A program made the position numbers and the translations under genes. A stretch of DNA of 51,631 bases from Minisyncoccota bacterium (GTDB taxonomy: Bacteria; Patescibacteriota; Minisyncoccia; Phycocordibacterales; JAQTLZ01): positions 1 through 51,631 of the forward strand of contig JAQTTF010000001.1 in NCBI GenBank assembly GCA_028710915.1, in the 5' to 3' direction. Each line of letters opens with the position of its first letter. Position 1 is the stretch's first letter. Positions 6,284-51,551 of the stretch are shown here, in pieces. A model generated the notes under the pieces. That model saw only the letters and a list, made by a program, of their open reading frames with translations. It had not been told where the DNA came from and did no database searches.

Positions 6284-6982
6284 CTATTTCTTTTGGTTCT
6301 CCTTTTCTGGCGGTTTAGAGTTCTTCTCGCGCTCTATTTGTTCTAACGCCCGAGAAAGCGCTCGGAAAAAGGCTTCTTCCTCCTCATGTCCAGCGTTCCG
6401 CTCCCATTGTTCTTCGGCGGCTTTATGGGGGTTTTCAGTCGTAGTCGCCCCTTTGTCTGCTGTTGGGTCATAACCCAAGACCTCGACGACCCTCTTATGC
6501 TGTTCATCGTCCCGTTTGAGATCCTCTTTGAGTGCCTCGTCAGCACGCTCCATAGCCTCCTTGGCCTTGCGGAGCGTCTCGACTGTCTTCTCATCATATG
6601 TCTGAAGCCCCTTTTCAAGCTCCGCTATAAATTGGGGGCTGGGCTCCATCCCCATTTCTTTCATGCCCTTTTTGTACGCTGCAACAACTTCAAGGTCATC
6701 CTTCGCCTCGGTTATCTTCCCACATGCCGTGACAAATTTTGTACACAGCTTTTCTGTCTCCGCCGCGGATTTTTCCAGACTATCCACGCGCTTTTGCAAC
6801 TTCTCGATGGTCGCCTTCTGCTCCGCAATCAGGGCATCATCAACGGCGATTTTCTGCCGCTGGTGTTCAATGAGTTGCTCTTGAGTCACGGGGACAATCC
6901 CCGCGCCTTGCGGCAAATCATTCGCCAGTGCGATCGCAGAGAACAGCGCCAACACAACGAGAGAAAGATGAGTGAATTTCAC
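6284..6982 (-). CDS. Secreted coiled-coil protein, function unknown (GC-richer than its neighbours)
   Basis: GTG start is preceded by GGAGGG at a 6-nt spacing. Signal peptide is MKFTHLSLVVLALFSAIALA, and the rest is a charged heptad-like sequence. The opposite-strand ORF 6386-7231 is treated as a shadow. Confidence 0.65.
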   Translation of the reverse strand: MKFTHLSLVVLALFSAIALANDLPQGAGIVPVTQEQLIEHQRQKIAVDDALIAEQKATIEKLQKRVDSLEKSAAETEKLCTKFVTACGKITEAKDDLEVVAAYKKGMKEMGMEPSPQFIAELEKGLQTYDEKTVETLRKAKEAMERADEALKEDLKRDDEQHKRVVEVLGYDPTADKGATTTENPHKAAEEQWERNAGHEEEEAFFRALSRALEQIEREKNSKPPEKENQKK

Positions 6983-7142
6983 AAAGAACCCTCCAAAATT
7001 GCTCGAGGACCATTCCTGAGCTATATCATAATGATGTATATATCATATTTTGTCAAGTTTCTGTTTTTACCCCGTTTCCCAGTACAGCGCAAAAAACAAC
7101 AAAAAAATTCCGTGAAAGCAGAATTTTTTTGTTTCGCATTTA

Positions 7143-9833
7143 TTATTTCACCCCCTGACCTTTCCCTACCCGCACATCAGAGACGACACTTTTTTTATCT
7201 CTTCGCCCAACTTTTTTCACTTCAAAAATAAATTCTTTCTCTTTCATACCGACAGAAATAATCCCCCCTCTCATAAGTCCTTTTGAAATCATCAGATTTG
7301 CAACAGGTGTCATAAGCTTGTCTTGAATAAGCCTTTTCAAAGGTCGCGCACCATATTGAGGATTGTAGCCTTCTTTTGCCAAGTAGGTGAGCACCACATC
7401 TTCAACCTCGAGAGAAATTTCTTTTGACAGAAGTCGATCTTTCACTACACCAATCTGAATATCTACAATTTCTTTAATCGCTTCTTCGTTCAAGATATCG
7501 AAGACGATCACATCATCAAGACGATTCAAAAATTCCGGTCGAAAATGATCCTTGAGAGCATTCTGTACTTTTGATTTTATTTCTTGATAATCGCTCTTTG
7601 GATTTCCCGCGTTGAAACCGATCTTCTGCATCTTATCGATATAGCTTGCGCCAATATTTGAGGTCAAGACAATGATCGTATTTTTAAAATTGACCACTCT
7701 TCCCTTTGCATCGGTTAGTCTTCCGTTATCAAGAACTTGGAGAAGAATATTGAATACTTCTGGATGTGCTTTTTCAATTTCGTCAAAGAGAATAATCGAA
7801 TACGGTCGATGTCGAACAAGTTCTGTGATGCCTCCGCCTTCGTCGTAGCCCACATAGCCCGGAGGCGAACCGATAATTTTTGAAACCGAATGCTTCTCCA
7901 TATATTCAGACATATCCACACGGATGAGCGCCTTTTCATCGTCAAACATAAATTTCGCAAGCGCTTTGGTAAGCTCTGTCTTTCCCACTCCGGTAGGACC
8001 AAGGAAAATGAACGAGCCGATAGGACGATTTGGATCTGCAACTCCCACGCGAGAACGCTTTACAGCATCGGAAATTTTTCGTACCGCTTCATCCTGACCC
8101 TTGATTCTTGACTTAAGTTCTTCTTCCATTCGAGCGAGTTTCCCTGCTTCTTCCTCAAGCATTCGGGTAACAGGAATCCCCGTCCATTTTGAGACAATGG
8201 AAGCAATATCATTTTCAACAATTTCTTCTTTGAGAATTCGGCGAGAACTCTGGAGCTTCTTGAGTCTCTTTATTTTCGTTTCAAGTTCTTTTTCAAATTC
8301 CGGAATTTTTCCATAGCGAATTTCTGCAGCTCTAGAAAGATCAGAATGGGCTTCGGCGCTTTCTCCCTCCATACGAAGAGATTCAAGTTCTTTCTTAATA
8401 GTTTTTATTTCAGAAATCGTCTCTTTTTCATTTTTCCATTTGAGTTCGATTTCAGAAGTCTTTTCTTTCAGATCAGCAATTTCTTTCTGAATTTTAGAAA
8501 CGCGGGCCTTTGCCACTTTAGAAGTTTCTGCTTCCTTTTTAAGAGCCTCTTTTTCAATTTCAAGACGCATCACTTTTCGATGGGTCTCTTCGAGTGCCGG
8601 GGGCATATCCTCAAGAGAAATTTTGAGTGAAGATGCGGCTTCATCGATAAGATCAACTGCTTTATCAGGCAAGAATCTATCGCTTATATAACGACTCGAA
8701 AGATTTACAGCAGCAACAATTGCATCATCAGTAATTCGCACCCCGTGGAAAAGCTCATATTTTTCTTTGAGGCCTCGAAGAATGGCGATAGCATCATCGA
8801 TCGAAGGCTCGCTTACGTGTACCGGCTGAAAACGTCTTGTGAGCGCGGGATCTTTCTCGATATGACGCTGATACTCCTTAAGCGTTGTCGCTCCGATTGC
8901 GCGAAGCTCTCCCCGAGCCAAAGCAGGCTTGAGCATATTTGAAGCATCCATAGAACCTTCTGCCGCACCAGCGCCGACAATCGTATGAATTTCATCGATG
9001 AAAAGAATAATTCTTCCTTCCGAACGTTCTACTTCCTTAATGATATTCTTGAGACGCTCTTCAAATTCTCCTCGGTATTTGGTACCCGCAATGAGAGAGC
9101 CGAGATCAAGTGACACAAGCTCGCGATCTTTAAGAGATTCTGGAACATCGCCTAGGGCCATCCTAATAGCGAGTCCTTCAGCAATAGCTGTCTTTCCGAC
9201 TCCGGCTTCGCCGATAAGCATCGGATTATTTTTGGTTCGGCGGGAAAGAATCTGGATAATGCGGGAAATCTCGGTGTCTCGGCCAATAACTGGATCCAAT
9301 TTATTTTCTCTGGCAAGCTTGGTCAAACTTCTGGTGTATTTCGAAAGTGATTTAAATTTCTTTGGCTGATTTACATCGGTAATTTTTGCGGTGCGCAATT
9401 CTTCGAGCACGCGAAGTACTCCCTCTTTTTCGATTCGAAAACGAGAAAGAATTTCCCGGGCGCTTCCCGGCACATCAAGGATAGCGATAAAGAGATGTTC
9501 TGTTGAAACGAATTCGTCTTTCAGTCCGGCAGCAATTTTCGAAGATTTCTCGATTGCTTCAGCAAGCTCTGGAGTAAGATAAATCTGATACGAAGGAGCA
9601 ACAACTGCTCCAGATTCCGGGCCTTCAATCGACTCGATGAGCGAATCTGTAAGAAGAAGGGTGTCAATTTCCAGCTTATCGAGAATAGAGGTAACCATAC
9701 TCTCTTCTTGGAGAAGGAGGGCTGTGAGAAGATGGAGCGGATTTACATGATTTTGTCCGCGTTCAATCGCAAGCTCATGAGCCCTGCGGATCGCCTCCTT
9801 TGCTTTTGTGGTGAAATGGTTGAATGGGGGCAT
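7143..9833 (-). CDS. clpB: ATP-dependent chaperone ClpB
   Basis: 896 aa. Has a Clp N domain, two AAA+ modules (GEAGVGKT and GPTGVGKT), a long coiled-coil M domain, and the sensor motif GARPLKR. Confidence 0.95.
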
Positions 9834-14228: not shown

Positions 14229-14254
14229 GATTCCCATTTCGAAGACTAAAGGGG

Positions 14255-14299
14255 AAACCAATCGGGGTACTGACCCTGTAAGGGTCGATATCTTTCCCC
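14255..14299 (+). ncRNA. tRNA-linked conserved RNA core motif, copy B
   Basis: AAACCAATCGGGGTACTG-GACCC-tgtaa-GGGTC-GATATCTTTCCCC. AATCGG (14260-14265) can pair with CCGATT (14227-14232). Confidence 0.6.
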
Positions 14300-14360
14300 C
14301 TATGAGTTTGTCAGAACACTTTTTTTCTGTTATTGTTTTTGAGTTTCCAGGATTTGTCAT

Positions 14361-14703: not shown

Positions 14704-14710
14704 ACAACAA

Positions 14711-14751
14711 AAAATCCAATCGGGATACTGTTCTCGTAGAGAAAGATTCCC
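14711..14751 (+). ncRNA. tRNA-linked conserved RNA core motif, copy C
   Basis: AAAATCCAATCGGGATACTG-TTCTC-gta-GAGAA-AGATTCCC. Confidence 0.6.
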
Positions 14752-14785
14752 AGGTGGACGCACCGAGTAAAACAACATCATAAAT

Positions 14786-14867
14786 GCCGGGGTGGCGAAA
14801 TTGGCAGACGCACTTGCCTTAGGAGCAAGCGGAGTAATCCATGGAGGTTCAAGTCCTCTCCCCGGCA
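14786..14867 (+). tRNA. tRNA-Leu (TAG), no encoded CCA
   Basis: Acceptor GCCGGGG/CCCCGGC. Anticodon arm CTTGC-CTTAGGA-GCAAG. Long variable arm. T arm GGAGG-TTCAAGT-CCTCT. Confidence 0.9.
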
Positions 14868-14912
14868 CAAATTAAAAAACTAGCACTTAAGTGCTAGTTT
14901 TTTAATTTGTGC
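14865..14912 (+). other. Long hairpin that includes the last 3 nt of tRNA-Leu(TAG)
   Basis: GCACAAATTAAAAAACTAGCAC-ttaa-GTGCTAGTTTTTTAATTTGTGC, a perfect 22-bp stem. A second hairpin lies at 14917-14938 (GTAAGTGCC-aaaa-GGCACTTAC). Confidence 0.8.
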
Positions 14913-14940: not shown

Positions 14941-15093
14941 GAGAGGACTTGAAGCCCGATTGAGCATTTTTTCTAGCTCTACCAAGCGAAGAAAAAATCC
15001 AATCGGGGTACTGCTCCTGTAAGGAGAAAGATTCTCCTTCCGATCGACAAGAAGATCGAAAAGTACCGGGCGTAGCCGACAAGTCCTCTCCCG
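14941..15093 (+). ncRNA. tRNA-linked structured element, copy D (closed domain containing the core motif at 14994-15038)
   Basis: GAGAGGACTTGAA (14941-14953) is the exact antisense of tRNA T arm 14848-14860. GAGAGGACTTG also pairs with CAAGTCCTCTC at 15080-15090. Inner helices are CCCGATTG/CAATCGGG (14955-62/15000-07) and ATTTTTTCT/AGAAAAAAT (14966-74/14990-98). The core reads AAAATCCAATCGGGGTACTG-CTCC-tgtaa-GGAG-AAAGATTCTCC. Confidence 0.6.
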
Positions 15094-15169
15094 CTTTCTA
15101 CTGCCCAGTCAACAACTCCTTTTCCTATTCTATCCTTAAACCAAGCCACCAAATCGAGTATTCTCTAGG

Positions 15170-15198
15170 TTGACAAATGCTTGTTTATATGATAGTAT
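15170..15198 (+). promoter_or_regulatory. Sigma-70-type promoter for the 15292 gene
   Basis: TTGACA (15170-15175), a 17-nt spacer, then TAGTAT (15193-15198). Confidence 0.5.
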
Positions 15199-15291
15199 AC
15201 AGGTAGAGGAGTCGTGTGATTCCTGCTTGTACATTCAAATCGTCATTACCGGGTTTGAAAAACCCAGAAACCAAACGGAGGCAAGAAGATC

Positions 15292-16116
15292 ATGGAGACT
15301 TTGCTGGATGTCTTGGGTATCATCGCTCTTGTGCTGTTCATCCTGACAGTATTGGGTGTGATAGACAAAGAGAGCTGGAAACAGTTCGGAGGGTGGGCAT
15401 GGGCAAAGACCCCCCCGATTGCGCGATGGGCGCTGTTCGCGGTCATAATCATCGGCCTTTACGGGCTCTGCGCGTTCAATGGCACTTACGAGAGGTTGTC
15501 ATGGGATGCCAGAACTCGAATCTTCTTCTTCTTACTATCGATACCAATTGCTTTCATAATTGGTAGCGCTGGTAGCGGAGCAGGAGCGCCGGCAGGACAC
15601 GGCGGGCATGGAGGAGGACACGGCGGCGGAGGGAGCAACAAAAATTGGGCACTCATCCTCCTTGCACTGGGGGTCGTCATTGTTGCGTGGATGGGGGTGG
15701 TTAACGCCCCTGGAATTGTGCAGGCAGTGAACCCTACTACGGTAAGCCCCAAAAAAGCGGCCGGTCAGAAAGCAAGCGCTGGGAACACAACACAAGTTAT
15801 AGTTTCCCAGAAGCCGCCGGAAGGTCCAGAAAATATGGCTCCAGTCCCAGTCGAGCCGGGAACAATGAGTGAAGTGTTTCCTGTCTCTACGAAAGACATC
15901 ATGTATTGGATTTATCTCCACAAGCGCTCCGACAATGGCCACGTATCCCTCATTCTATACAATGGGAAGTGGACCAAAAGCGGCAAGTATGTTGCTGATC
16001 TGAGCCACAAGGAAGTCTGCGACTCGGGTAGCGCTGAATTTCCAAGACTACCTTTCGTACAATTAGATAATACGAAGGGGAGAGGAAGTGTGGACCTGGG
16101 GTGGAACAAAAACTGA
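15292..16116 (+). CDS. Multi-TM membrane protein with a Gly/His-rich loop, function unknown (GC-rich island)
   Basis: GGAGG lies 10 nt upstream of the ATG. About 4 TM helices, the loop GSGAGAPAGHGGHGGGHGGGGSN, and a soluble C-terminal domain of about 130 aa. Confidence 0.6.
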   Translation: METLLDVLGIIALVLFILTVLGVIDKESWKQFGGWAWAKTPPIARWALFAVIIIGLYGLCAFNGTYERLSWDARTRIFFFLLSIPIAFIIGSAGSGAGAPAGHGGHGGGHGGGGSNKNWALILLALGVVIVAWMGVVNAPGIVQAVNPTTVSPKKAAGQKASAGNTTQVIVSQKPPEGPENMAPVPVEPGTMSEVFPVSTKDIMYWIYLHKRSDNGHVSLILYNGKWTKSGKYVADLSHKEVCDSGSAEFPRLPFVQLDNTKGRGSVDLGWNKN

Positions 16117-16147
16117 AACTGAAGGTATAATGACGATTCAAGCAATG

Positions 16148-16178
16148 GGCGGAGAAAGACACTATGTCTCTCTCCGCC
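16148..16178 (+). terminator. Terminator of the 15292-16116 gene
   Basis: GGCGGAGA...TCTCCGCC stem, followed by a T-rich tract. Confidence 0.6.
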
Positions 16179-16210
16179 TATTATGTTTCTCTTTTTTTAT
16201 ATTCAACAGA

Positions 16211-16237
16211 AAACGCCCCACTTAAAGCAGGGCGTTT
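16211..16237 (-). terminator. Terminator downstream of the 16252-16491 gene
   Basis: AAACGCCC...GGGCGTTT stem, with a T-run on the minus strand. Confidence 0.6.
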
Positions 16238-16251
16238 CCAAAGAAAAAATA

Positions 16252-16491
16252 CTAGAAATTAAGACTTGCCTTAATGATATTTTTAATGACAATAGCCGCA
16301 GTCATAATGAAAAGTCCGATAAGACCCCACATAATATGCTTGGCACCGACACTTCTTGCTTCTTCATCGTCAGACTTCCAAACAAATATTACAACTCCGT
16401 AGACAAATATCACCACCGCAACACCAAACAATAGCGTGATGATAGGATTAAGAACAACCCTCTCTATATTGGCAATTATTGGTACTTGCAT
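16252..16491 (-). CDS. Small two-TM pilin-like protein (TrbC/VirB2-like topology), paralog 1
   Basis: 79 aa. Two hydrophobic helices are separated by the charged loop KSDDEEARSVG. Confidence 0.6.
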   Translation of the reverse strand: MQVPIIANIERVVLNPIITLLFGVAVVIFVYGVVIFVWKSDDEEARSVGAKHIMWGLIGLFIMTAAIVIKNIIKASLNF

Positions 16492-16542: not shown

Positions 16543-16875
16543 CTATCGAGGGAGAAGATTAGGAACGTTATTTGCCTGATTCAACTGGAGAGAGTCTCGA
16601 AGGAGGTTTACCAAGCCCCAGACAGACACCATGACGAAAATAGCGATAATACCGTAAATCATTGTATTCCTTCCAGCTTGTCGCTTTTCCTCATCCCCTC
16701 CTGCCAAGATATAGGTAAGAACTCCGTATAGAAAGAGTACAACCGCTGCAGAGATAAAGAGCGGTACGAGTCTGGTAAGGATGTTCTGAGCCCAGGTAAT
16801 GAGATTATCAACACCAGCCGCAAATGCGAGCATTGGCAGTGCCCAAGCTGACGCAACAATAAGAGTTTTTTTCAT
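16543..16875 (-). CDS. Two-TM pilin-like protein, paralog 2
   Basis: 110 aa. Signal peptide MKKTLIVASAWALPMLAFA. C-terminal module LFLYGVLTYILAGGDEEKRQAGRNTMIYGIIAIFVMVSVWGLVNLL. Confidence 0.65.
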   Translation of the reverse strand: MKKTLIVASAWALPMLAFAAGVDNLITWAQNILTRLVPLFISAAVVLFLYGVLTYILAGGDEEKRQAGRNTMIYGIIAIFVMVSVWGLVNLLRDSLQLNQANNVPNLLPR

Positions 16876-16999
16876 TTCTTAAAAAAATAACTTAATAATA
16901 AAGACCTTTTGATAAATAATACGTGCCTTAATGGTAACAAACCGCGGGAAATGAGCAAGAAAGATGTGTGGATATTAAATCTTCTCCAGACTAACATTA

Positions 17000-17521
17000 C
17001 TAAGGGGTAAGTTGCGGCAATATAGGACTCTTGCCCACAACACTTAGGCTAATAATGCCGACAAGCGCCCATAGTGTAGTAATAACTGCAAGGCCGACAA
17101 TACCATAGGTCATAAACCTGACTCCTTCTTTGCGTTTCTCTTCATCGCCCCCTGAATAAATATAGCGAAGCACCCCATACAGGAAGCCAACGACAGCGAG
17201 ACCAACAAGGAGTGGAATGAGTAGGCCCAAATAGCTGGTCAAACAAGCAACCAAAGATTTAAAATCGTTTATTGCGCCGCATGAACCACCGGCAGAAGTG
17301 TGTACGCTATATGCAGAATCGCTACAACTCTGAATTGCCGGCAAGTCTAGCCCAGCATTGAGAGTGCCCGGTGGACATATATAAGCATGCGCGACGAAAG
17401 GAGTAAAAAAGAAAGACGAAAGAACAAAACAAAACATAACCAAGGAAATGACACCTCGGGAATGGAGGATAAAATACTTTGTAACACGATTAAATCTTTG
17501 AGCTGCCGAACGTGTATGCAT
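17000..17521 (-). CDS. Pilin-like paralog 3 with a short Cys-containing ectodomain
   Basis: C-terminal module FLYGVLRYIYSGGDEEKRKEGVRFMTYGIVGLAVITTLWALVGII. Five Cys lie upstream of it. The true start may be the internal ATG at 17434 (MFCFVLSS...). Confidence 0.6.
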   Translation of the reverse strand: MHTRSAAQRFNRVTKYFILHSRGVISLVMFCFVLSSFFFTPFVAHAYICPPGTLNAGLDLPAIQSCSDSAYSVHTSAGGSCGAINDFKSLVACLTSYLGLLIPLLVGLAVVGFLYGVLRYIYSGGDEEKRKEGVRFMTYGIVGLAVITTLWALVGIISLSVVGKSPILPQLTP

Positions 17522-17538
17522 ATGAATAAAAATTATTT

Positions 17539-18441: not shown

Positions 18442-18457
18442 TTTTTCTTTTTTAAGA

Positions 18458-35433: not shown

Positions 35434-35507
35434 TCAACCATGAAATCAATCGTGATCATACAGGGTCGACACACCAGTCGACCTTGTTTTCTTTTATAAA
35501 ATTTTGT

Positions 35508-38061: not shown

Positions 38062-40971
38062 CTACAACGTCTCTTTTTTGAGAGGACACCACTCGCAATC
38101 CTTATCACCACAAGTCTCCGTTAAGAATTTTCCGGACCAAACACTTTCAATGAGCAATTGGACTTCGCCGAGAACTCGCTTTTCGTCTGTACTCGAAATC
38201 GGAAGCGAGATTACTGGACATCTCCCCTTCGCATCCGGTTTTATGAAAACCAGCGCCGGTTCTATCGCCTTATTTTTGTATTTCGTGTTCCCCTCGAGCA
38301 AAATTTTGTAGAAAATAAGCTGGCGGAAATAGTTGCCGTCGCTGTCTGTTTTTGTCTCGCCTTTGAGCGCATTTACACTCATTGCCTCGCGAGTTTTGTA
38401 GTCATAGACCAGCGTCTTATCTTGGCCCTCAACCACGGTGTCCAGCTTGCCATGAAGCTTCAAAATGACCTCTTTTTGCCCATATTTGCCCTCATACGAA
38501 GCTTCTACCCACGTTTCCGTTAATACCTTACCCTCCACATTTAGCAGTGGAATAAGGGCTTTTGCCACTTTGGGAGCATCTGCGAGAAGCGCTTCCACAG
38601 CTCCTTCTTTTTCAAAAAGTGGAAGAAGCGAGCGGTCAAAAAAGGCTTTCACCGTACTCTCAATCGTCGCCACAATCGCCTCTTCACTTTTATTTTCTTG
38701 ATGCCACACATACGAAAGAGCTTCGTGCATCGCATTCCCTTTTTCCGATGCAACGCTCGGAGCTTCCGGCACTTTCAAAATACTTTTGTATAAAAATTTG
38801 CTTGGGCATTCCAAGAAGCTGTTCAATGCTGTTACTGAAAGCCCGGATTCAGTCAGAACATTTTTTGCATATTCCACAATCTCCGCTTTTTGTTTTTGAT
38901 CTACATCTCCGGCAATTTTCGCAGACGAATTATCAAAAGTAGCCGGTAAATCAGTTTGTGAAATAGATTTTGCATCAAGTTCGGAAATAAACCGAAGCGG
39001 AGTGAATTCTTTTTTCAACGCATCTTCAAGCGGAGCAATTATTGAAGCGTGTTTCTTGGCACGAGTGAGAGCAACATAGAAAAGCCGTCTTGCATCCCGC
39101 ACTTCATCTTCATCTCCTTTTTCGCGAGGCAAAATAAACGAGCTTCCGTGCCCGCGAGAAAGCCAGGTCTCGTCAGTTGCATACGGCAAGAAAACATAAT
39201 CAAACTCAAGGCCTTTGGAGCCGTGAGCGGTCATTACCCGCACTTGGGAGTCCGGTCGGCCGACGGTTATCTTCACACTCTTTGTCTCTGCTGATTGCCG
39301 ATATGCCAGAAGTTCTTCTATCAAAACGCTCGGAGATTGAATACTTTTTCCCGACGCAATGTCTCCCGCAAGGGCGACAATAGTTCGCCAGACTTCAGCA
39401 GAAAGAGGATTTCGTTCAGCAACTTTTTCAAATCCTGAAAGCTTCGCCGCCAAAACGAGAAAGTTAATCGCTCCGTCTTTGGTAATTTCTTTCTGCAACT
39501 TTCCTATTGCGGAAATTTCTTTAGAAATTTCCGCAATGTTCCCGCTTCGAATTGAGCGAACAAGCACAGTTCGGCGAGTAAAATCGAGTCCCCAGAGTCC
39601 CCCAGCAACAGTCCGAGCCAAAGCCTCCACATTCCCCGGATTCGCTAAGTATTCAATCAAGTCAAAATAAAGTACCCCAACAGGATGCGAAAAAATATCC
39701 GCCCCGCGCTCCGCCGAAGCAGGTATTCCATTTTGTTGAAGTAAGGCAAGCACCCGCTCCACATCACGATTCCGCCTTACAATTATCGCTACTGTGCTTT
39801 CTGGTTTTATTTCTTTAACTTCCTCCACCAAATACTTGTCCCCCGCTTCCGTATTCCCCGCAGTAACAATATCCACCGGTTTTGGCTTATCACCATTCGC
39901 CGCTTTAAGTTTTATTCGGAGATTTTTGTACTCATCACCTTCATAATTTTGCTCTATCATAGCAAAGCTTGAATCGAGAATATGCTGATGCGAGCGGTAG
40001 TTTTCCTCGAGCCGGATCTCCTTCATCCCCTTCCACGCGGTCTTGAATTTCAAAAAGTTCTCGACAGACGCACCTTGAAAGCGGAAAATGGCCTGCTTCT
40101 CATCCCCCACCACGAAGAGATTGGGATTGTCGAAAAAGTCAGCGATAGCGCGAATGAGCATATTTTGCGAATCATTGGTGTCCTGATGCTCGTCAACGAG
40201 AATGTAGAGAAATTTCTCCTGGAGCATTTGAAGAAGCAATTTGTCGGTGCGCAAAGTGGTGAGAAGCTCGATGATGAGGTCGTCAAAATCCATTTTCCGG
40301 TCGGCGCGTTTCTTCTCTTCGTAGGCGAGATAGGCATCGGCAAAGATAATCGTGCGCTCGCATTTTTCAATTCGCTTCAATGCGTCGCCTTTGAGTTGAC
40401 CTTTTGTCGGCCCGCGAGTGGAAAGACTAGATTGGTCGTTTTTCACCCGCTCAATTTCTTCTGTGGCAAATGTGCCCACGATTTCCGGCGTCCATGCTTC
40501 TTTTTTGCTGTCGCGAATTGCACCGAGAATTTTCCCGACATAGAAATCCGGCTCGCCGGCAGGACGCAGCTTGGCAAACTTCTTGTCGCGCAAAATGGTG
40601 CGGACGAGGGTTTCAGATTCTATTTCAGTAATTTGCTTGGTACGAGAGAGATGCGGAAAATGATCCGGGAATTCGGCAATGACAGAACCGGCAAAGCCGT
40701 GATAGGTATGCACCCGCACCTCCTCTGCGCGCGCTCCGATGAGCGCGCGCAGACGCCTTTTCATCTCTTTGGCACCGGCTTCCGTGAAAGTAAGACACAA
40801 AATCCCGCTAGCAGGCGTGTCAGTTTTGAGCAAAATATTTCCAATCCGCAAAGCCAAAATCTGCGTCTTCCCAGTCCCCGGCCCCGCAATGACCATGACA
40901 GGTCCCTCAATGGTATCAACAGCCTCTTTTTGCTTAGTGTTAAGTTTCTTGTATTCTTCCTCGAATTTCAT
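38062..40971 (-). CDS. UvrD/PcrA-type helicase fused to a C-terminal PD-(D/E)XK (Cas4/AddB-like, Cys-cluster) nuclease
   Basis: Walker A is AGPGTGKTQ, with the motifs VDEHQDTN and TAHGSKGLEFD. The nuclease core is GKLDTVV...VYDYKT. Cys ligands are ECPSKF and CGDKDCEWCP. Confidence 0.85.
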   Translation of the reverse strand: MKFEEEYKKLNTKQKEAVDTIEGPVMVIAGPGTGKTQILALRIGNILLKTDTPASGILCLTFTEAGAKEMKRRLRALIGARAEEVRVHTYHGFAGSVIAEFPDHFPHLSRTKQITEIESETLVRTILRDKKFAKLRPAGEPDFYVGKILGAIRDSKKEAWTPEIVGTFATEEIERVKNDQSSLSTRGPTKGQLKGDALKRIEKCERTIIFADAYLAYEEKKRADRKMDFDDLIIELLTTLRTDKLLLQMLQEKFLYILVDEHQDTNDSQNMLIRAIADFFDNPNLFVVGDEKQAIFRFQGASVENFLKFKTAWKGMKEIRLEENYRSHQHILDSSFAMIEQNYEGDEYKNLRIKLKAANGDKPKPVDIVTAGNTEAGDKYLVEEVKEIKPESTVAIIVRRNRDVERVLALLQQNGIPASAERGADIFSHPVGVLYFDLIEYLANPGNVEALARTVAGGLWGLDFTRRTVLVRSIRSGNIAEISKEISAIGKLQKEITKDGAINFLVLAAKLSGFEKVAERNPLSAEVWRTIVALAGDIASGKSIQSPSVLIEELLAYRQSAETKSVKITVGRPDSQVRVMTAHGSKGLEFDYVFLPYATDETWLSRGHGSSFILPREKGDEDEVRDARRLFYVALTRAKKHASIIAPLEDALKKEFTPLRFISELDAKSISQTDLPATFDNSSAKIAGDVDQKQKAEIVEYAKNVLTESGLSVTALNSFLECPSKFLYKSILKVPEAPSVASEKGNAMHEALSYVWHQENKSEEAIVATIESTVKAFFDRSLLPLFEKEGAVEALLADAPKVAKALIPLLNVEGKVLTETWVEASYEGKYGQKEVILKLHGKLDTVVEGQDKTLVYDYKTREAMSVNALKGETKTDSDGNYFRQLIFYKILLEGNTKYKNKAIEPALVFIKPDAKGRCPVISLPISSTDEKRVLGEVQLLIESVWSGKFLTETCGDKDCEWCPLKKETL

Positions 40972-41009: not shown

Positions 41010-41519
41010 TCATTTATAACCTGCGATTAAAAGAAAAATTATTACTAACGCGAATCCGCTAAAGTATGACGCGGGTAAATACTTATTTTTGTATATTCTT
41101 ATCCATTTTTGGTGCCACCATATGGAACCATTAGGACCTTTGAGTAGTTGTGTTAAAGAGTCAAAGTACCAGTTGAACACAAACCATGAAAAATCCTCAA
41201 TAAAACAGATGGCGATAAATATTGCTACTAATAGCCAAACATTTTTAACTAAAATAAAATATTCGGCCACCAAAATCCATGGAATTATCAGCCAGTACAT
41301 TACCAATGAATAACCAAAAAAATATGGCACTCCGATGGCTTTGGCAAGTCCTTTCATTACAGGGTTATTCTGGGCAATAATTTTACCGTACCATTTATCT
41401 TTTGGGTGCCCCGCGCCCCAGCCCTTATCCTTTTCAATGAGAATTTCTAAAATAGCCACTGGCCATGCAATCGCCAATACATTAAGAATAAAAAAGGAGT
41501 AAAAATTCATAATCTGCAT
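41010..41519 (-). CDS. Polytopic membrane protein, unknown function
   Basis: 169 aa, Trp-rich, about 5 TM helices. Confidence 0.5.
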   Translation of the reverse strand: MQIMNFYSFFILNVLAIAWPVAILEILIEKDKGWGAGHPKDKWYGKIIAQNNPVMKGLAKAIGVPYFFGYSLVMYWLIIPWILVAEYFILVKNVWLLVAIFIAICFIEDFSWFVFNWYFDSLTQLLKGPNGSIWWHQKWIRIYKNKYLPASYFSGFALVIIFLLIAGYK

Positions 41520-42328: not shown

Positions 42329-42391
42329 ACAAAGAAACCGCCCGCAAGACAGAGAAGTTTCTTTGTCCTACGAACGGTTTTAATTTCCTAC

Positions 42392-42826
42392 CTACTTGCG
42401 ATTCAACTGCCGAACCTTCAGGTCGTACATAGTAGCGAGAATAACGCTCGCCGCCATGTGACGAATCACCTTTTCGGGTGAGGCAGCTTCGAGTCCTTGG
42501 AGCCAGCCTTTCGGCCGATTCCAGTGCACGTGATTCGTTGTGCACTTATCCAAGCCCGCCTTAAGCCGCTTCCACGGCTCGCCGGAGCTCTGCCCCCTCG
42601 GCTCGCCAACGATAGCGCACGAGGCAATTTTCGCGAGGGTCTCCAGCTTCATACGACGGAGCTCCTCCACAATTGCCCGATGGACTATCTCACGGACGCC
42701 GGCTGCGACAGTGTCGTTCTCAAAACTGTCGAACCCCACGTCGCCATCCATCACCTGCCTCTTCAAGAGTTGCCCCATCAAAGTGGTAGCGAGTCTCTTG
42801 ATGTACTCTCTGTCCTGCCTTCCCAT
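42392..42826 (-). CDS. Hypothetical protein (GC-rich island)
   Basis: 144 aa. Upstream promoter on the minus strand is TTGACT-17 nt-TATGAT (plus coordinates about 42930-42960). No motif recognised. Confidence 0.45.
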   Translation of the reverse strand: MGRQDREYIKRLATTLMGQLLKRQVMDGDVGFDSFENDTVAAGVREIVHRAIVEELRRMKLETLAKIASCAIVGEPRGQSSGEPWKRLKAGLDKCTTNHVHWNRPKGWLQGLEAASPEKVIRHMAASVILATMYDLKVRQLNRK

Positions 42827-43007
42827 GTGTCAGTCCTTTCTCGATGCCAACCATCATTATGAACACAAGCCATGGGAATAGCTTGAACGGGCGTAGCCCT
42901 GGTTGGAGAAGCAAAGAGCTTCTGGGCTGTATCATACCATTTTATTAAAGAAAAGTCAATGTTGGCTATTTTAAGCAGAAAAAAGACGCCCATTGGGGGC
43001 GTCTTGA

Positions 43008-43484
43008 TTACTTCCAGAATACACGATATTCCGGCTTGCTGAATTTGAGAAGACATCGAGATCTCACTTCTTTGGGAAGCCGATCACACGAGTCGCAGCT
43101 CGGCTGGCACAGCGCCCGTGATAACCACTTTCCTCTGTCGGGTTCTTCTTCCATCCCGTGCTTCATAGCAAGTCCAGCGATTATTTCATCTTGAGCGATG
43201 ATAAATAATCGCTTACCCAGAGGAGCGCGGGCAACAAGTCCCCGAAACACGAAGCTCATATATCGGTTGCCTCTGTGTTCCTGATCGACCCAGAGCGATC
43301 CGATCTCGACCGAATGCTCGCGATCCCAGAGCGCGCCGAAGGCAATGATTTTCCCTTCGTGCTCAATAACTTCCGCTCGCCCCTCTTGTGCCGCAAGGAG
43401 GAGTGCATCGACTTCCAAACGTGCTCCGAGAAGCGTACGCTCCCTTCTCATTTTCTGCGAAAGAACTTCAAATTTGTCTCTCAT
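43008..43484 (-). CDS. GNAT-like acetyltransferase with a Cys-rich C-terminal tail
   Basis: IGSLWVDQEHRGNRYMSFVFRGLV resembles GNAT motif A. The tail is CQPSCDSCDRLPKEVRSRC. AGGAGG lies upstream of the ATG. Confidence 0.45.
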   Translation of the reverse strand: MRDKFEVLSQKMRRERTLLGARLEVDALLLAAQEGRAEVIEHEGKIIAFGALWDREHSVEIGSLWVDQEHRGNRYMSFVFRGLVARAPLGKRLFIIAQDEIIAGLAMKHGMEEEPDRGKWLSRALCQPSCDSCDRLPKEVRSRCLLKFSKPEYRVFWK

Positions 43485-43778
43485 TTTTTCCTCCTTTCAA
43501 AAGGTGAGAAAAGACAAAAATAACGGCTTCAGGCCGCTTGAGAAAGTTCGTATAAATTTTAGAGAAATTACAAACACTCGAAAGCAGCCTCAAGAATGTG
43601 GCTGCGTCGTCGATTCTGTAAATTTGTAATCTTTGACTGCATATACAAAGGTTATCAGATAATGCGCTTATTCGTCAAATCTATAGAGTTTTTCTATTTG
43701 ACTTGTTCCGGTACATAAAGCAAGATAAAAAACGGGACAGGGTAATTTTCATGGCGAAGTACATAGGAGAATGGCAAC

Positions 43779-44804
43779 ATGCCTGACAATCCACAGGTTC
43801 CGGCGTCGGGACCAGCGATAGGACCAGAATTAGTACAGGAGCTAAAACCAGTAGTAGACTGGCATGGGCTTCTCACAAAGTGTCCGGACCCGCAAATGCA
43901 GAAGATTGCGTCTCGGGTGAAAAAGGCAGCGAACATTGCTTCCGTGATTCTTCACGGTCCAACTGGCGCTGGCAAAGAGGTGGTCGCAAGAGCACTACAA
44001 CAGTGCGGAGATCGTTCCGGTGAGGCACTCGTTATCGTCAACTGTGCAGCAATTCCTCACGGTTTGTTCGAAAGCGAACTCTTCGGCCACAAGAAAGGCT
44101 CCTTTACCGGCGCTGAGCGAGACCGGAAAGGTGCATTTTTGCTGGCAGACAAGGGAACATTGTTTCTCGACGAAATCGGGGAGCTCCACCTTGAACTTCA
44201 AGCCAAGCTCCTGCGAGCTATCGACGGGGGCATCATCAGAGCAGTTGGTAGCGACAGGGACATCGAGACGAATGTGCGACTCATTGTCGCCAGCAACCGG
44301 AACCTTCAGAAGATGGTCGAGAAGAATTGGTTTCGTGCAGATCTCTATTATCGGCTAAATCTGTTTCCGATCACGATTCCGCCGCTTCGCGAACGGGCTC
44401 AAGATATCCCACACCTCGCAAAGTTCTTTCTCGAACAGTACTCGAACGGAACAGGAACCTTTTCGTCAGACGGAATGGCGAAGATCTGTGCATATTCCTG
44501 GCCCGGTAACGTCCGTGAACTCAGCAACACGCTCCGGACGGTTTGGACAACTCTCGAAGAAGGCCAGACGGAGATTCGGGCAGAAGATTTGTCCGACCTT
44601 CAAGAGCCGAAGGAGGATGCCGCGGCTAAACTCGCCAAGGCACTCAAGAAGTTCTGCAGAAGGACAAAAGACCTGACACTTGATCAAAGAGTCAACCTCA
44701 TCATTCGCAGAGTTCTTGAAGAAGAGGAGGGCAACGTCGCACAAGTTGCGCATCGACTCGATATCGGCAAGGCAACGGTACGTTCCAAAATGAAGAAAGA
44801 ATAA
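43779..44804 (+). CDS. Sigma-54-interacting AAA+ transcriptional activator (PspF-like: no sensor/receiver domain)
   Basis: Walker A is [11 protein letters not shown]. The GAFTGA loop reads as GSFTGA. Walker B is LFLDEIGEL, plus [10 protein letters not shown] and [10 protein letters not shown]. The C-terminal Fis-type HTH is [23 protein letters not shown]. Confidence 0.85.
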
Positions 44805-45091
44805 AGTTCTTCGGGGCAAGCCCCGAAAGTATCGAACTATATTACGACTTTGACTCGGACGTCGTGAATGAGATTACTCATTCGTGCGTCTCTCGCTCGC
44901 CGTAATAAAAAAATTCAAAAGTCTAGTTCTAAGGGCTCTGCGCTGAAAAGTGTCGAGCCCCTATTTTTTGTAATGATAAGTCAGCGTATACTGAATGCAA
45001 AATTTTCGATATATATTGCAAACAACTAACCCCGTTTCGGGGTTTTACACAGAGAAATGTAAAAATGATTTGGAATTGCTATACTTTTAGC

Positions 45092-45592
45092 ATGAAAATG
45101 AAATTCCGCAAGAATACCGAGGCGGCTTTGAAATTTATTGAAGATGTTTTTTCAAAGCATCATTTGGAACGGGTCTATATGGGCGGATTTGATGCAAAAA
45201 TGTATGGCGCGACTCGTCCCCTTGCCGATATTGATGTCTACGTGAGAGAAGAAAAATTGCCAATGCTTGCCGAAGAATTCAAAAAATATATTGTTTTTGG
45301 ACCGAAAAGATACAAAGATCGTAATTGGGATTTGCAAATGTTCACATTTATTTATGATGGGCAGGTCGTGGATATTTGCGGAGATGAATCTGTGAAAATT
45401 TTCGATGAACCCGACAAAAAATGGATAAAACCTCCGACTGGATTTGAAAAATATACCGAAGCAGAAATATTCGGAAGAAAGATCAAGCTCATCACCGAAC
45501 CCGACCTAATTAAATACAAAACTTTTTTGCATCGCAGAGTGGACGTGAGCGATGTGAAAGAAATGAAAGTGGTAATGACTGAAAAGGTTTAG
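45092..45592 (+). CDS. Small nucleotidyltransferase-fold protein (Lnu/ANT-like GG...DxD pattern)
   Basis: RVYMGGFDAKMYGATRPLADIDVYV. The ATG at 45092 is preferred over 45065. Confidence 0.45.
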   Translation: MKMKFRKNTEAALKFIEDVFSKHHLERVYMGGFDAKMYGATRPLADIDVYVREEKLPMLAEEFKKYIVFGPKRYKDRNWDLQMFTFIYDGQVVDICGDESVKIFDEPDKKWIKPPTGFEKYTEAEIFGRKIKLITEPDLIKYKTFLHRRVDVSDVKEMKVVMTEKV

Positions 45593-48525: not shown

Positions 48526-48539
48526 AACTCATTTGATTC

Positions 48540-48568
48540 TTGCATTCCTTTTGTCAAAGGAATAGTAT
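48540..48568 (+). promoter_or_regulatory. Promoter with an 8-bp inverted repeat filling the spacer
   Basis: TTGCAT (48540-45), a 17-nt spacer, then TAGTAT (48563-68). ATTCCTTT-tgtc-AAAGGAAT spans 48544-48563. Confidence 0.5.
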
Positions 48569-48601
48569 GGCAGAAAATGGTTCTTCAAAGGAGGGATTCT
48601 C

Positions 48602-49111
48602 ATGCAAAGCCTGACGCTTTTACGTGTGGGTTTAGACCACGATATTCCGGTTGATTACGCACGGGATCTCAAGGACTGCCTTGGGAAAGCCCGCGTGCGG
48701 ATATCAGCTTGGAATTGCGATACCAGTCCGATAGCCGTTCGAGACAGGGAGAGAGGTCGCGCCTTGATCTCGGTCAAATACCTTCTGCCAATGGATTTTG
48801 ATCCTTTGGTGCACAATATATCCTGCGTCATTCGAGAGGCAAAAGGATATGGACAGCCGGCTACCGTGAAGGAACTCTTGGCTCTAAAAGCGAGATCCTT
48901 AACTTTGCGAGCCCTGACATCGCAAACGAACCCGCTCAGCAAACTGCCTGCGCTTGGAACTCCTCTCGAAGACGGCGACATCGTGCCAGGAATCTCGAAA
49001 ATTCCGAGAACAAAGTATTGGGGGCTCGCCCCGATACGAGCACAAGAGTGGTTGTCCTGCGCCAATCAGTTGCTCATCGCGGTAGTGTTGCAAAGAACAG
49101 AATTGGAGTAA
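48602..49111 (+). CDS. Hypothetical protein (GC-rich island)
   Basis: 169 aa. AGGAGG lies 7 nt upstream of the ATG. No motif recognised. Confidence 0.5.
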   Translation: MQSLTLLRVGLDHDIPVDYARDLKDCLGKARVRISAWNCDTSPIAVRDRERGRALISVKYLLPMDFDPLVHNISCVIREAKGYGQPATVKELLALKARSLTLRALTSQTNPLSKLPALGTPLEDGDIVPGISKIPRTKYWGLAPIRAQEWLSCANQLLIAVVLQRTELE

Positions 49112-49272
49112 CGGCTAGGTCAAGAAGATCACGCCGTTTTTTCTTTTTCATTTTAAAAATCTAACAAAAAATTCGCTTGCTTGTGAGCGCGACTTTGTCT
49201 ATTATGAAATAAGAACCTTAACTAGCCTTCAAACCCATTTGGTCGAGAAAATCGACCCAGAAAGGATTGTGC

Positions 49273-49968
49273 ATGAACGAGCTCTTCAACACTTTGCCCA
49301 CCTTCTTTGTTTTGGCTTCGGGTGGACCCGGAGAAAAAGAAGGAGGTTCGGGCCTCGAGAAACTCCAGGAGGCCATAGAAATGGGCCACCTTCGAGCAAA
49401 AATCGTCGGAATCGGCTCAAACCACGCAAATGGCGGCGTGCGAGAAAAAGCTGATCGGTTCAAGATCCCGTTCTTCCATTTGCCCAAGGCAAAGCGAAAT
49501 GCCGAAGAATACCAACGGCTTGTCAGGGAAACGAAAGCGGATTTTGTCGTCCTCTCTGGATATATCTTTCTCGTGGAAGGTCTAGAACCTGGAAGGACCG
49601 TCAACATCCACCCGGGACGGACGGACAAGTTCGGCGGCCCCGGAATGCATGGGGATCACGTCCACCAGGCAACGATGTAAGCTTTCGTGAGGGGTGAGGT
49701 CAGTGAGACAGCGGTGACGATGCATTTCGTCACCCCCGAGTACGACAAGGGACCAGTCCTTTGGGAGTTCCGAATCAAAATTCGTACCCACGACACGTGG
49801 AAAACGCTAAAGAAACGCGTCAATGGGTACGAACACAGGTTCCAAGCGATCATTACGAATCTGGTCGTGAACGGCCTGATTCGCCTGAGGGGAGACGGCA
49901 CAAACAATGATCCATGGAGCGTAATTGTTCCCAAGGGATATGAGATCCGTCAGGGCGAATACATTTAA
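49273..49968 (+). pseudogene. PurN-like formyltransferase interrupted by one in-frame TAA (49678-49680)
   Basis: ORFs 49267-49680 and 49687-49968 are in the same frame. Read through, the sequence is ...VNIHPGRTDKFGGPGMHGDHVHQATM*AFVRGEVSETAVTMHFVTPEYDKGPVL... The formyltransferase N-x-H and Asp motifs are intact. Confidence 0.6.
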
Positions 49969-50189
49969 CGAAAACGTTCAACAATCGCATCAAAAAAAAC
50001 CGCTGGAAGAGAAAACTCTTGCCAGCGGATTTTTATTTTTTATGTTCGGGATAAAAGACTTGTATAAAAAGTGGACTTCTATATGATTTATTGTGGACGT
50101 ACCTTAGCATTTAAACATTCAGCGCCTTCCTTGTGGATTGCGCATTCTTTCCTCGATGGCCGGGGACAACCCCGAAAGGAGTAACACCG

Positions 50190-51551
50190 ATGTCGAACAA
50201 GACAGGCACTACGGTCCCCGGAAACGGTGAGACTGCGACAGAAGAGAAATACGAGGTTGTTTCGGAAAACATTCGCCTCCCTCTCGCGGAGGTAAGAATG
50301 TTTGAAGGCCAGCCTCGCAAGTTTTTCGATCAGGCGGCACTTCGAGATCTCGCTGCAAGTATCAGGGCCCGCGGACAAACAACTCCAATCAGAGTCATGC
50401 GCTTAGAAAAACCGGTCGGCAAAATCAAATCCGAAGCGGTCGATGGTCAGCGAAGATACATGGCGCACGAACTTCTGAAATCGACACATCTGGTTGCCAC
50501 AATCGTAAAGGTACGAGACAAAAAGGATCAATTCATCCAGTCCTGCATCGCGAACTTCGGACAATACCCGCACACCATGCTCGAAAAGGTGCTCGCGGCC
50601 AAACGTCTGCACGAGGAGTACAAACAGAAACCGAGCGACATCGCTACGGTCTTCGTCTGTAACGTCGGCTACATTTATTCACTCTTGAAAGCTGGCGAAG
50701 CCGATATTGCGATTCTCGAGCGGCTAGATCCAAAGAGACCTGAGAACGAAAGACTCACGTTCCCAGTTCTCCTCATGCTTGCCCCTCTCCCGCGCGATAT
50801 GCAACACAAACTCGCTCCCCAAGTGGCTGGTACCATTCCGGTCTACAAAGCGCGAGACATCATCCATACTGCCACGAAAGCCGCCGGAATACAGATCGGA
50901 AGTGGCCAGAACGCAAGAACTCCCAGGTGTGACTGGAATATGGTCACCGGGTTTGTAAGACGAACGTCGGAACAAGCCGGCATTTTTGCCAAGAAACCCG
51001 ACGAATACTTCGATGCTATCTGTGCTTCTCGCACGAAAGGCGAAGTGGATCGAGTTGTGATTGAACTGGAACAGGGTATCCAGAGACTTCAAAGCCTCAA
51101 AGCGGCGTTGAAGAAACGGGCGACTGAAAACAGAACCGGAGGCAACGGTGCCACAAACAACGCTTGGCTTTTGGAACACAAAAGCGCTCCGGCGGCGGAG
51201 AGAAGAGCTCCCCCGCCCGAAACTCGAAATATCCCTCCCGTAGCCGTAATTCCTACGGAGGCGATTGAGACGAGAGTTGTACTGAAGCAACCGGAGAAGG
51301 TGCGAGCAGATGTCCAAACATCGACGGTCCAACAGTCCGCAAAGCCGGAGCGGAAGCATCTGACGCACAAGCAAAGGATGGCGATGGAGAAAAGCGGCGG
51401 ACTTTTGAAAAAACCGGCGCCGCGAGAGTTCCCTGTGCCAGTTGATGTGCCGCTCCTCCCCTTCGTCGCTGCACCGACAGCGACAGAATTACGGGACAAG
51501 AAACGTGGCTACACCGCCGGCACAAAAATTCCGACAATGCACGTGGATTAA
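50190..51551 (+). CDS. ParB N-terminal-domain (ParB/Srx fold) protein with a long basic/Pro-rich C-terminal region
   Basis: GQPRKFFDQAALRDLAASIRARGQTTPIRV ... DGQRRYMAH. AAAGGAG lies 8 nt upstream of the ATG at 50190. The ORF is open from 50133. Confidence 0.7.
   Translation: MSNKTGTTVPGNGETATEEKYEVVSENIRLPLAEVRMFEGQPRKFFDQAALRDLAASIRARGQTTPIRVMRLEKPVGKIKSEAVDGQRRYMAHELLKSTHLVATIVKVRDKKDQFIQSCIANFGQYPHTMLEKVLAAKRLHEEYKQKPSDIATVFVCNVGYIYSLLKAGEADIAILERLDPKRPENERLTFPVLLMLAPLPRDMQHKLAPQVAGTIPVYKARDIIHTATKAAGIQIGSGQNARTPRCDWNMVTGFVRRTSEQAGIFAKKPDEYFDAICASRTKGEVDRVVIELEQGIQRLQSLKAALKKRATENRTGGNGATNNAWLLEHKSAPAAERRAPPPETRNIPPVAVIPTEAIETRVVLKQPEKVRADVQTSTVQQSAKPERKHLTHKQRMAMEKSGGLLKKPAPREFPVPVDVPLLPFVAAPTATELRDKKRGYTAGTKIPTMHVD

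Follow-up and report, generated by a model that had tools for sequence, protein, structure and literature searches.

GC-rich islets of accessory genes, probably acquired horizontally, in the AT-rich backbone of a Minisyncoccota genome

Genomic islets at chromosomal hot-spots are known by their atypical composition and codon usage, their patchy presence, slots whose cargo varies, some of them beside tRNA genes, and accessory, orphan or decaying cargo. All of these features recur in a 51,631-nucleotide stretch of DNA, here called the window (contig JAQTTF010000001.1 of GenBank assembly GCA_028710915.1, positions 1 to 51,631), from a Minisyncoccota bacterium, where short GC-rich islets interrupt a backbone richer in A+T. 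The likeness is incomplete. Acquired DNA is more often AT-richer than its recipient, whereas the islets of the window are GC-richer than the genome that carries them; they measure 0.16-2.7 kb, with one to three genes apiece, have neither mobility genes nor flanking direct repeats, and most of their genes have a promoter or terminator of their own. The classical genomic island, typically larger than 10 kb and equipped with an integrase and att repeats at a tRNA gene, is matched in composition but not in size, mobility genes or att sites. Of the hallmarks of a prophage or plasmid remnant, a divergent ParB-like gene is the sole candidate.

Bacteria of the Candidate Phyla Radiation (CPR) have minimal genomes and depend on other cells, and their gain of metabolic genes is central to their biology. 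A survey of 125 aquifer Patescibacteria (PMC12455944, mSystems 2025) attributed up to 13% of genome length to horizontal gene transfer and placed 83% of the inferred transfers within the phylum; the parts of it drawn on here describe both islands and single transferred genes, with metabolic functions added by transfer, much as in the window. The transfers treated in those parts are relatively recent ones, found by nucleotide similarity to donors in the set, whereas several islets described here would predate species splits; nor do those parts describe the persistence of high G+C at third codon positions (GC3) of a single gene, or the missing overall signal of amelioration, discussed below. Horizontally acquired accessory islets in a CPR genome are an already known phenomenon. 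The window is a good example of it, a view, at the level of coordinates, of how the flexible genome is organized in one Pacebacteria genus; one congener supplies an empty site for comparison, and the cargo takes in parts of purine and proline metabolism as well as a regulator for which no sigma factor was detected. We consider it likely that the islands are small islets of accessory genes acquired horizontally from genomes of higher G+C.

The metagenome-assembled genome (MAG) to which the window belongs, as contig C12, is designated G000; it has 823,621 bases in 87 contigs, with 43% GC, 82% completeness and 5.4% contamination. Two congeners, G001 (99% complete) and G002 (100%), were compared with it. 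Orthologs in G001, the nearer of the two, carry the label Candidatus Pacebacteria, which places the organism among the Patescibacteria (CPR) with small genomes. The earlier note on this DNA, made from the letters alone, had described a compositional mosaic with at least six GC-rich islands, and this description holds: sliding-window GC content peaks at 0.52-0.61 in the places it gave, against 0.37-0.46 in the backbone. Taken one open reading frame (ORF) at a time, GC3 is 0.55-0.76 in the islands and 0.33-0.46 in the backbone genes of the window, the pooled backbone of the genome standing at 0.382. The six intervals pooled have a GC content of 0.515 and the remainder of the window 0.423. Hand counts offered in illustration of the contrast (42/60 G+C at 35221-35280, 20/60 at 41041-41100) are exact, and a codon string quoted from the PurC-like gene is found at 34897, in frame. 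The backbone codes for core functions (PBP, MraW, alanine racemase, ClpB, IF-2, BipA/TypA, HisRS) and further for an AddA-like helicase-nuclease, UppP and a type IV pilus block.

GC1, GC2 and GC3 of the pooled islands are 0.597, 0.406 and 0.595; in the backbone GC1 is 0.514 and GC2 is 0.377. First and second positions are raised too, and the shift is therefore not limited to third positions. The backbone has a ratio R/(K+R) of 0.34, most island proteins one of 0.49-0.64; the residues FYMINK make up about 0.23 of island proteins against 0.30, and the residues GARP about 0.29 against 0.23. Codon choice in the islands moves uniformly to G/C-ending codons (CTG, GCG, CCG, AAG, TTC, ATC). The GC step falls at the ends of the coding sequences (CDSs), with values of 0.31-0.47 in the flanks and 0.46-0.65 in the first and last 150 nt of the CDSs. 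In island 4, strong GC richness is confined to about 34.2-35.45 kb, and 33614-34330 reaches only about 0.47-0.52. Two further rises were considered as islands and rejected: 5401-5900, where the rise is driven by amino-acid composition (GC2 0.53, GC3 0.38), and 40201-40800, which is the N-terminal third of the conserved helicase-nuclease gene (GC3 0.56, and 0.56-0.59 in the congeners).

The mosaic extends through the genome. GC3 reaches 0.52 or more in 91 of 782 ORFs of at least 100 aa, about 12%, in a distribution with its mode at 0.38 and a heavy right tail, and segments with a GC content of at least 0.50 total about 90 kb, or about 11% of the bases of the MAG; both shares compare with the maximum of 13% in the aquifer survey. 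This class includes PurL, PurD, GuaA, ProB, a long prolyl-tRNA synthetase (ProRS), a PyrF-like protein, biotin carboxylase and DapA, biosynthetic enzymes that are unusual for CPR genomes. The GC3-rich regions in such MAGs are not binning errors, and GC3 computed gene by gene offers a quick way to flag their accessory fraction.

Comparison with the two congeners, which are colinear with the window (core genes at about 73-88% nucleotide identity), shows that the islets are patchily distributed among the three genomes, and that the corresponding slots elsewhere carry other GC-rich cargo. Islet 1 (6204-7143, minus strand) is a 940-bp module absent from G001, where a clean empty site leaves 8 bp between a motif linked to tRNA-Tyr and the clpB stop codon; the same slot holds 3.3 kb of other DNA in G002. 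The slot of islet 2 (15089-16273, plus strand), after a tRNA cluster, measures 2.7 kb in G001 and 3.1 kb in G002, each with different GC3-rich ORFs. The islet 2 ORF (15292-16116, plus strand) encodes a 274-aa membrane protein without a family match (GC3 0.56), whose C-terminal half is 38% identical to a 192-aa ORF of the G001 slot, itself weakly similar to a 194-aa ORF in G002; the protein looks like a member of a fast-evolving family resident in the slot. Islet 3 (31514-31672, plus strand; GC content 0.55) consists of one 52-aa ORF without a family match, in an intergenic gap of 441 bp that measures 281 bp in G001 and 1095 bp in G002.

Islet 4 (33588-35528, plus strand) occupies the slot between the genes for BipA and HisRS. 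Its PurC-like gene (34519-35433, plus strand; 304 aa, GC content 0.59, GC3 0.76) has a syntenic ortholog between the same two genes in G001, with 63% protein identity and a GC3 of 0.72; searches of G002 and of 38 other families of the order yielded none. Two small ORFs in the same islet (33614-33925 on the minus strand and 34081-34329 on the plus strand) have no homolog in the congeners. Islet 5 (42329-45064, no strand assigned) was found in G000 only: it has no match in the syntenic regions of G001 and G002, where the slot holds 9.5-9.9 kb of other DNA. Islet 6a (48528-50058, plus strand), a segment of 1531 bp, corresponds to 103 bp in G001. Its first gene (48602-49111, plus strand; 169 aa, GC3 0.55, no family match) has an ortholog in G002 with 61% identity, and its second, a PurN-like pseudogene (49273-49968, plus strand), had no match in the syntenic regions of the two congeners. 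Islet 6b is a ParB-like gene (50133-51551, plus strand; GC3 0.57) of 454-472 aa, depending on whether it starts at the GTG at 50133 or the ATG at 50187. In G001 its ortholog (65% identical, GC3 0.61) forms a lone-gene GC-rich islet between a cupredoxin gene and a DnaG/RpoC block; no copy was found in G002. Island 6 extends past the end of the contig.

The islets are thus accessory genes housed in hot-spot slots common to the genus, with a turnover that is independent from species to species, and their patchy distribution, with empty sites, is of the kind expected from horizontal transfer. Under the proposed mechanism, a limited set of intergenic hot-spot slots would be filled and emptied separately in each species. 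The older islets, those of the PurC-like and ParB-like genes and of the 169-aa ORF, would predate the species splits and would have been held by purifying selection; islets 1 and 5 and the PurN-like gene would be species-specific; and some cargo would have been orphaned or be decaying, as suggested by the activator described below and by the nonsense codon of the PurN-like gene.

What the islets carry had largely been recognized by eye, and Pfam confirms these calls with SAICAR_synt (PurC-like), Formyl_trans_N (PurN-like), Sigma54_activat with HTH_8 (sigma-54 activator) and ParB_N (ParB-like). No family match was obtained for three small island ORFs and for four of more than 100 aa. Among these, the islet 1 ORF (6284-6982, minus strand; 232 aa, GC3 0.58), which has a signal-peptide-like N-terminus, belongs to no Pfam, NCBIfam or PADLOC family and has one weak PHROG match only. 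Selection is measurable where orthologs exist: dN/dS is about 0.2 in the PurC-like gene (0.20 between G000 and G001), the ParB-like gene and the 169-aa ORF (0.23). The earlier note spoke of domestication. Purifying selection on these three genes bears that idea out, while the broken PurN-like gene and an activator without a detectable sigma-54 partner speak against it.

The PurC-like protein matches SAICAR_synt with an E-value of 7.8e-28 and 98 bits. Against TIGR00081, the equivalog model for PurC, it scores 66.8 bits where the cut-off is 189.9, and the alignment covers the N-terminal half only; it is a member of the SAICAR_synt superfamily, its function and its assignment as PurC itself being uncertain. 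Upstream, a promoter (TTGACT...TACTCT) and a leader of about 100 nt (34385-34518) are 78% identical to the corresponding DNA in G001, where the CDS is 68% identical. The leader contains a hairpin with an apparent compensatory change (GGGGAAATTTCCCC in G000 and GGCGAAAATTCGC in G001), and may be a cis-regulatory RNA; a known riboswitch was considered, and no credible Rfam match was obtained.

The GC-rich purine genes cannot be read as a complete acquired pathway, since searches of the three congeners detected no PurE, PurH or PurB. Present are PurD, a large PurL and one AIRS-domain protein, and the sole PurN-like gene of the window is a pseudogene. The large PurL occurs in G000 only among 41 genomes searched, and its best GTDB matches, from Desulfobacterota and Actinomycetota, are 42-45% identical, with 49% across one partial match. 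The purine genes lie scattered in the MAG, at C17:12385-16254, C16:9313-10641, C47:116-517 and C22:1790-2089; among these loci the large PurL, PurD and a C-terminal fragment of GuaA are GC-rich, with the AIRS-domain protein alongside. In the PurN-like gene, Formyl_trans_N matches lie on either side of an in-frame TAA (49678-49680). An alternative genetic code was considered for this stop and rejected; all other genes read normally in table 11, which makes a nonsense mutation the simpler reading.

The sigma-54 activator (43779-44804, plus strand) of islet 5 comprises an AAA+ domain, a lid and a Fis-type helix-turn-helix (HTH), with no sensor domain found by Pfam, NCBIfam or PADLOC. A functional enhancer-binding system requires sigma-54 (RpoN), of which the DNA-binding domain (PF04552) had no match in G000, an 82% complete genome; the same search matched six control genomes, four of them above the cut-off. 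The ParB-like protein matches ParB_N with an E-value of 8e-9 and scores 51.5 bits against TIGR00180, for which the cut-off is 58.45.

Island proteins have no close homologs: identities are 61-65% within the genus and at most 53% otherwise. Taxonomy of the best hits, proposed in the earlier note as a check, gives the following picture. The best homologs of the sigma-54 activator are 44-53% identical and are spread over many phyla outside the CPR, so that this gene must have come from outside the CPR. The best relative of the PurC-like protein outside the genus, 36% identical, sits on a contig of 53% GC whose composition it shares, and which bears the CPR hallmarks of DUF5671 and many small genes. 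Among 1.84 billion representatives, the ParB-like protein has, apart from its G001 ortholog, no relative closer than 39% identity; one of about 32% carries the name Candidatus Paceibacterota. The kin that can be identified belong to other Patescibacteria-like genomes of 50-56% GC, which tells against the host organism, or the mobile elements of a host, that the earlier note had considered as a source. The pooled GC1, GC2 and GC3 of the islets, read through Muto-Osawa regressions in the manner of Lawrence and Ochman, imply a source of about 52-53% GC; with amino-acid usage taken in as well, the range is about 52-54%.

The long ProRS, which lies outside the window, is a demonstrable xenolog and serves as a proxy for the GC-rich gene class. 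G000 and G001 each encode two ProRS enzymes, a short type found throughout the order and a GC-rich long type with an editing domain (in G000, C58:22967-24187 and C29:3192-4928, respectively). The long type belongs to a proB-proA-proC-proS module, present in G001 too, that occurs mostly on CPR-like contigs of 50-56% GC with a backbone GC3 of 0.53-0.64, on which it is compositionally native. In a maximum-likelihood tree, the three carriers with an AT-rich backbone (G000, G001 and a third lineage, L058) form one clade (support 95/96) nested among carriers with a GC-rich backbone; the genes flanking the long ProRS in L058 have no clear orthologs in G000. Within the module in G000, where proB spans the break between contigs C85 and C29, GC3 is 0.53 for proB and 0.58 for proS, and 0.40 for proA and 0.33 for proC, the latter two at backbone level. 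Outlier composition, patchy distribution, variable slots and the xenology of the long ProRS together support the repeated acquisition from GC-richer sources that the earlier note proposed. The main source of the islets was probably GC-richer Patescibacteria, not a host, which agrees with the predominance of transfer within the phylum in the parts of the aquifer survey cited above (PMC12455944). For the window's own genes, we infer both the source and the direction of transfer.

No integrase, transposase, relaxase, replication gene or phage structural gene was found in or beside the islets by Pfam, NCBIfam, PHROGs and PADLOC, in a search that covered the islet ORFs and, with Pfam, 40 other ORFs of the window including most islet neighbours. 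Two islands do lie next to tRNA genes, as had been noticed, just downstream of tRNA-Tyr (5929-6012) and tRNA-Leu(UAG) (14786-14868), and duplicates of the tRNA T-arm and 3' end abut islets 1 and 2 (6190-6200 and 15080-15092) on one side only; the junctions of islet 1 show no target-site duplication. These duplicates, and the motif linked to tRNA genes to which they belong, were considered as att-like borders and rejected, the motif having about 16 copies in G000 and being kept at the empty site of G001. The motif reads CCAATCGGGGTACTG, followed by a hairpin and GATTC; it stands at 6150-6203, 14248-14303, 14707-14754 and 14989-15043 in the window and at 12 other sites in G000, with many more copies in G001 and G002. 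GC content downstream of its copies is 0.37-0.51, with no consistent rise. Nor was any repeat detected that is common to all islet flanks; one element, about 100 nt long, occurs both at islet 5 and on contig C66.

A phage or plasmid origin was also considered, and every search was negative or weak: tblastn with the ParB-like protein gave no phage match and only weak matches to plasmid ParB proteins (about 28-31% identity), and scans of viral contigs with four islet proteins found no relatives. Genes for an uptake machinery are present: the window encodes N-methyl pilins along with an ATPase (T2SSE) and a platform protein (T2SSF), and each of the three congeners encodes ComEC. The most economical guess as to the route of entry is one that we infer from these genes, namely that free DNA would be taken up by type IV pilus and ComEC and then recombined at the slots.

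The composition of the older islets can be compared with the amelioration scheme of Lawrence and Ochman, in which foreign genes are said to start at the codon-position GC of the donor and drift to that of the recipient. Between the congeners, backbone dS by the NG86 method is about 1-3, with synonymous sites nearly saturated, and conserved four-fold sites of the backbone have a p4 (the proportion differing) of 0.52 and a GC4 (G+C at such sites) of 0.44. Under an F81 model, 55% of a compositional excess survives per lineage. The ancestral GC4 required to explain present values is then 0.78 for the ParB-like gene, 0.61 for the islet 2 family and 0.56 for the 169-aa ORF; these values can be reached, and the three cases are explained as old imports whose amelioration is still under way. 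For the PurC-like gene (GC4 0.80 in G000 and 0.74 in G001, p4 0.68), the required value is 1.05.

Several observations weigh against import from GC-richer genomes as an explanation for every islet. An ancestral GC4 above one is unattainable, and simple import followed by amelioration fails for the PurC-like gene, where synteny, the 78% identity of the leader, close to backbone level, and the compensatory change in its hairpin suggest vertical descent and not separate imports. Pooled GC1, GC2 and GC3 show no lag of GC3, and the signal of amelioration is accordingly not visible, which is odd for genes that would predate species splits at a dS of about 1 or more. The long ProRS keeps a GC3 of 0.56-0.58 in all three AT-backbone lineages, across up to 27% protein difference. 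No donor can be named for any gene of the window; all homologs are remote, and foreign origin consequently rests on composition and patchy distribution, the second of which could be mimicked by differential loss. At the islet borders, no signature of a recombination site was detected.

These observations admit another view, in which the high G+C of the flexible genes is actively maintained or continually renewed, rather than being the fading mark of import. We regard it as doubtful. The PurC-like cassette, and less markedly the long ProRS, the ParB-like gene and the islet 2 genes, stay well above the backbone in GC3 or GC4 in sister species despite saturating synonymous turnover. Were it true, a locus-restricted force favouring G+C would be at work, either GC-biased gene conversion (gBGC) at recombination hot-spots or selection on GC-rich mRNA, or alleles would be replaced recurrently from a pool of GC-richer Patescibacteria by pilus and ComEC uptake. 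Strong codon selection can be rejected as the cause of high GC3, since synonymous divergence of the islets (0.44-0.64) does not fall below the backbone medians (0.42-0.45). By a hand calculation, a scaled coefficient of about 1.5 is enough to keep GC3 at 0.74 while slowing synonymous change by only about 20%, so that undiminished synonymous divergence leaves room for a weak force. The retention of very high GC3 by the PurC-like gene is a small anomaly against which models of amelioration and of bacterial GC-content evolution can be tested, and might be the only element here of interest to specialists in genome composition.

A related explanation holds that the islet genes are residents of the genome, their G+C kept high by a gene- or locus-specific force, whether gBGC or selection. 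Under the backbone process, simple arithmetic forbids a passive persistence of the GC4 of the PurC-like gene, and the weak coefficient just given would suffice for maintenance; syntenic copies of the ParB-like gene, the islet 2 family and the 169-aa ORF are GC-rich alike; and the long ProRS stands well above a backbone GC3 of 0.37-0.39 in G000, G001 and L058. The GC step at CDS ends points the same way, as do the high GC3 (0.56-0.59) of the N-terminal third of the helicase gene in all three genomes and the behaviour of backbone GC3, which is moderately gene-specific (r = 0.48 between orthologs) and lower at higher synonymous divergence (r = -0.30 to -0.44). We nevertheless find residence an unlikely explanation. 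The GC-type amino-acid composition and the raised GC1 and GC2 are better explained by a past in a GC-richer proteome, the long ProRS is nested among the genes of GC-rich genomes, and slow amelioration suffices for all shared islets but that of the PurC-like gene. Moreover, accessory genes in the same variable slots can be AT-rich (41010-41519 at 0.355, 45065-45592 at 0.377), so that location in a slot does not by itself raise GC. To our knowledge, the effects of gBGC reported in bacteria amount to a few points of GC3, not the 20-35 needed here.

That a plasmid, prophage or integrative element once inserted at tRNA genes and other sites, and that the islets are its decayed remnants, strikes us as very unlikely. 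Such an origin might be read into the position of islets 1 and 2, just downstream of tRNA genes and starting right after the tRNA-end duplicates, into the ParB-like gene, which is typical plasmid or phage cargo and has weak PHROG matches to ParB, and into the structured repeat, about 100 nt long, that borders islet 5 and on C66 adjoins a GC-rich islet. Set against this are the lack of mobility, replication and phage structural genes in or beside the islets and of a target-site duplication at islet 1, and the multiplicity of the tRNA-linked motif, which also stands at the empty site of G001 and has no regular GC-rich stretch after it. The ParB-like gene stands alone between core genes in G001, and neither it nor the other islet proteins searched gave a phage or viral-contig relative. 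The same negative results give no support to the mobile elements of a host as the source of the cargo, a possibility raised in the earlier note. The least probable of the explanations, to a point where we give it very little weight, is an assembly or binning chimera in which GC-rich fragments of other community members were mis-joined. The MAG is indeed fragmented, with the completeness and contamination given above, and none of the other assemblies examined contains islet 1, islet 5 or the PurN-like gene, their proteins being singletons in the protein collection. Chimerism would, however, require two mis-joins per islet inside one contig, all of them intergenic and beside promoters or terminators, and the databases hold no abundant co-assembled organism that matches the islets, best matches being at most 53%. 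The independently assembled G001 has the PurC-like and ParB-like genes in the same order with the same neighbours, as well as an islet 2 homolog, and G002, also an independent assembly, has the 169-aa ORF; both congeners, at 99-100% completeness, display the same mosaic. To judge from this synteny, chimerism is unlikely for the PurC-like, ParB-like, 169-aa and islet 2 units. Acquisition from GC-richer genomes thus remains the explanation that we prefer for the islets.

By their predicted signals, most island genes form transcription units by themselves, each with an intrinsic terminator or a sigma-70-type promoter and in some cases the two together. The earlier note had called these signals host-style. 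Sigma-70-like promoters and intrinsic terminators do flank most island genes, but such signals are generic to bacteria and therefore show no adaptation to this genome. In islet 1, a terminator hairpin lies at 6228-6262, and the clpB terminator falls within the islet at 7098-7133. Islet 3 has its own promoter (31445-31472) and terminator (31680-31712). Islet 4 has a promoter at 34008-34035 and a terminator at 34329-34351, followed by the conserved promoter and leader of the PurC-like gene described above and, after that gene, by a terminator at 35460-35487. Besides the activator, islet 5 contains an ORF of 144 aa (42392-42826, minus strand; GC3 0.71) and a GNAT-like gene (43008-43484, minus strand), with a promoter at 42959-42931 and a terminator at 43005-42983. 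An ORF at 42778-43056 was considered as a further gene and set aside as probably spurious, since the promoter and terminator fall within it.

At the right border of islet 5 lies the conserved element of about 100 nt (44808-44905), with two hairpins that show compensatory changes between copies. Further copies occur at C66:11950-12060 in G000 (reverse strand), between two GC-rich ORFs, and at C3:101243-101399 in G002. A small RNA, a leader and a repeat element are all possible readings.

In the backbone, the AddA-like helicase-nuclease is encoded in the window by a single ORF of 969 aa (38062-40971), with a GC3 of 0.43 in the rest of the gene, below that of its N-terminal third. In both congeners this gene is broken, at a point corresponding to about 39790-39823, by 1.7-2.0 kb with GC3-rich ORFs, and the interruption may represent an intein, an inserted islet or a split gene. 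Two ORFs (17539-18498 and 18458-19594) of the block at 16543-19594 share a C-terminal T4SS_pilin/TrbC-like module and diverge strongly between the congeners, with 56-64% protein identity over partial lengths. G002 has, besides its syntenic clpB, a partial second copy (C20:1407-3248) that is 82% identical to 7143-8984 of the window, and could be a duplication or a strain variant.

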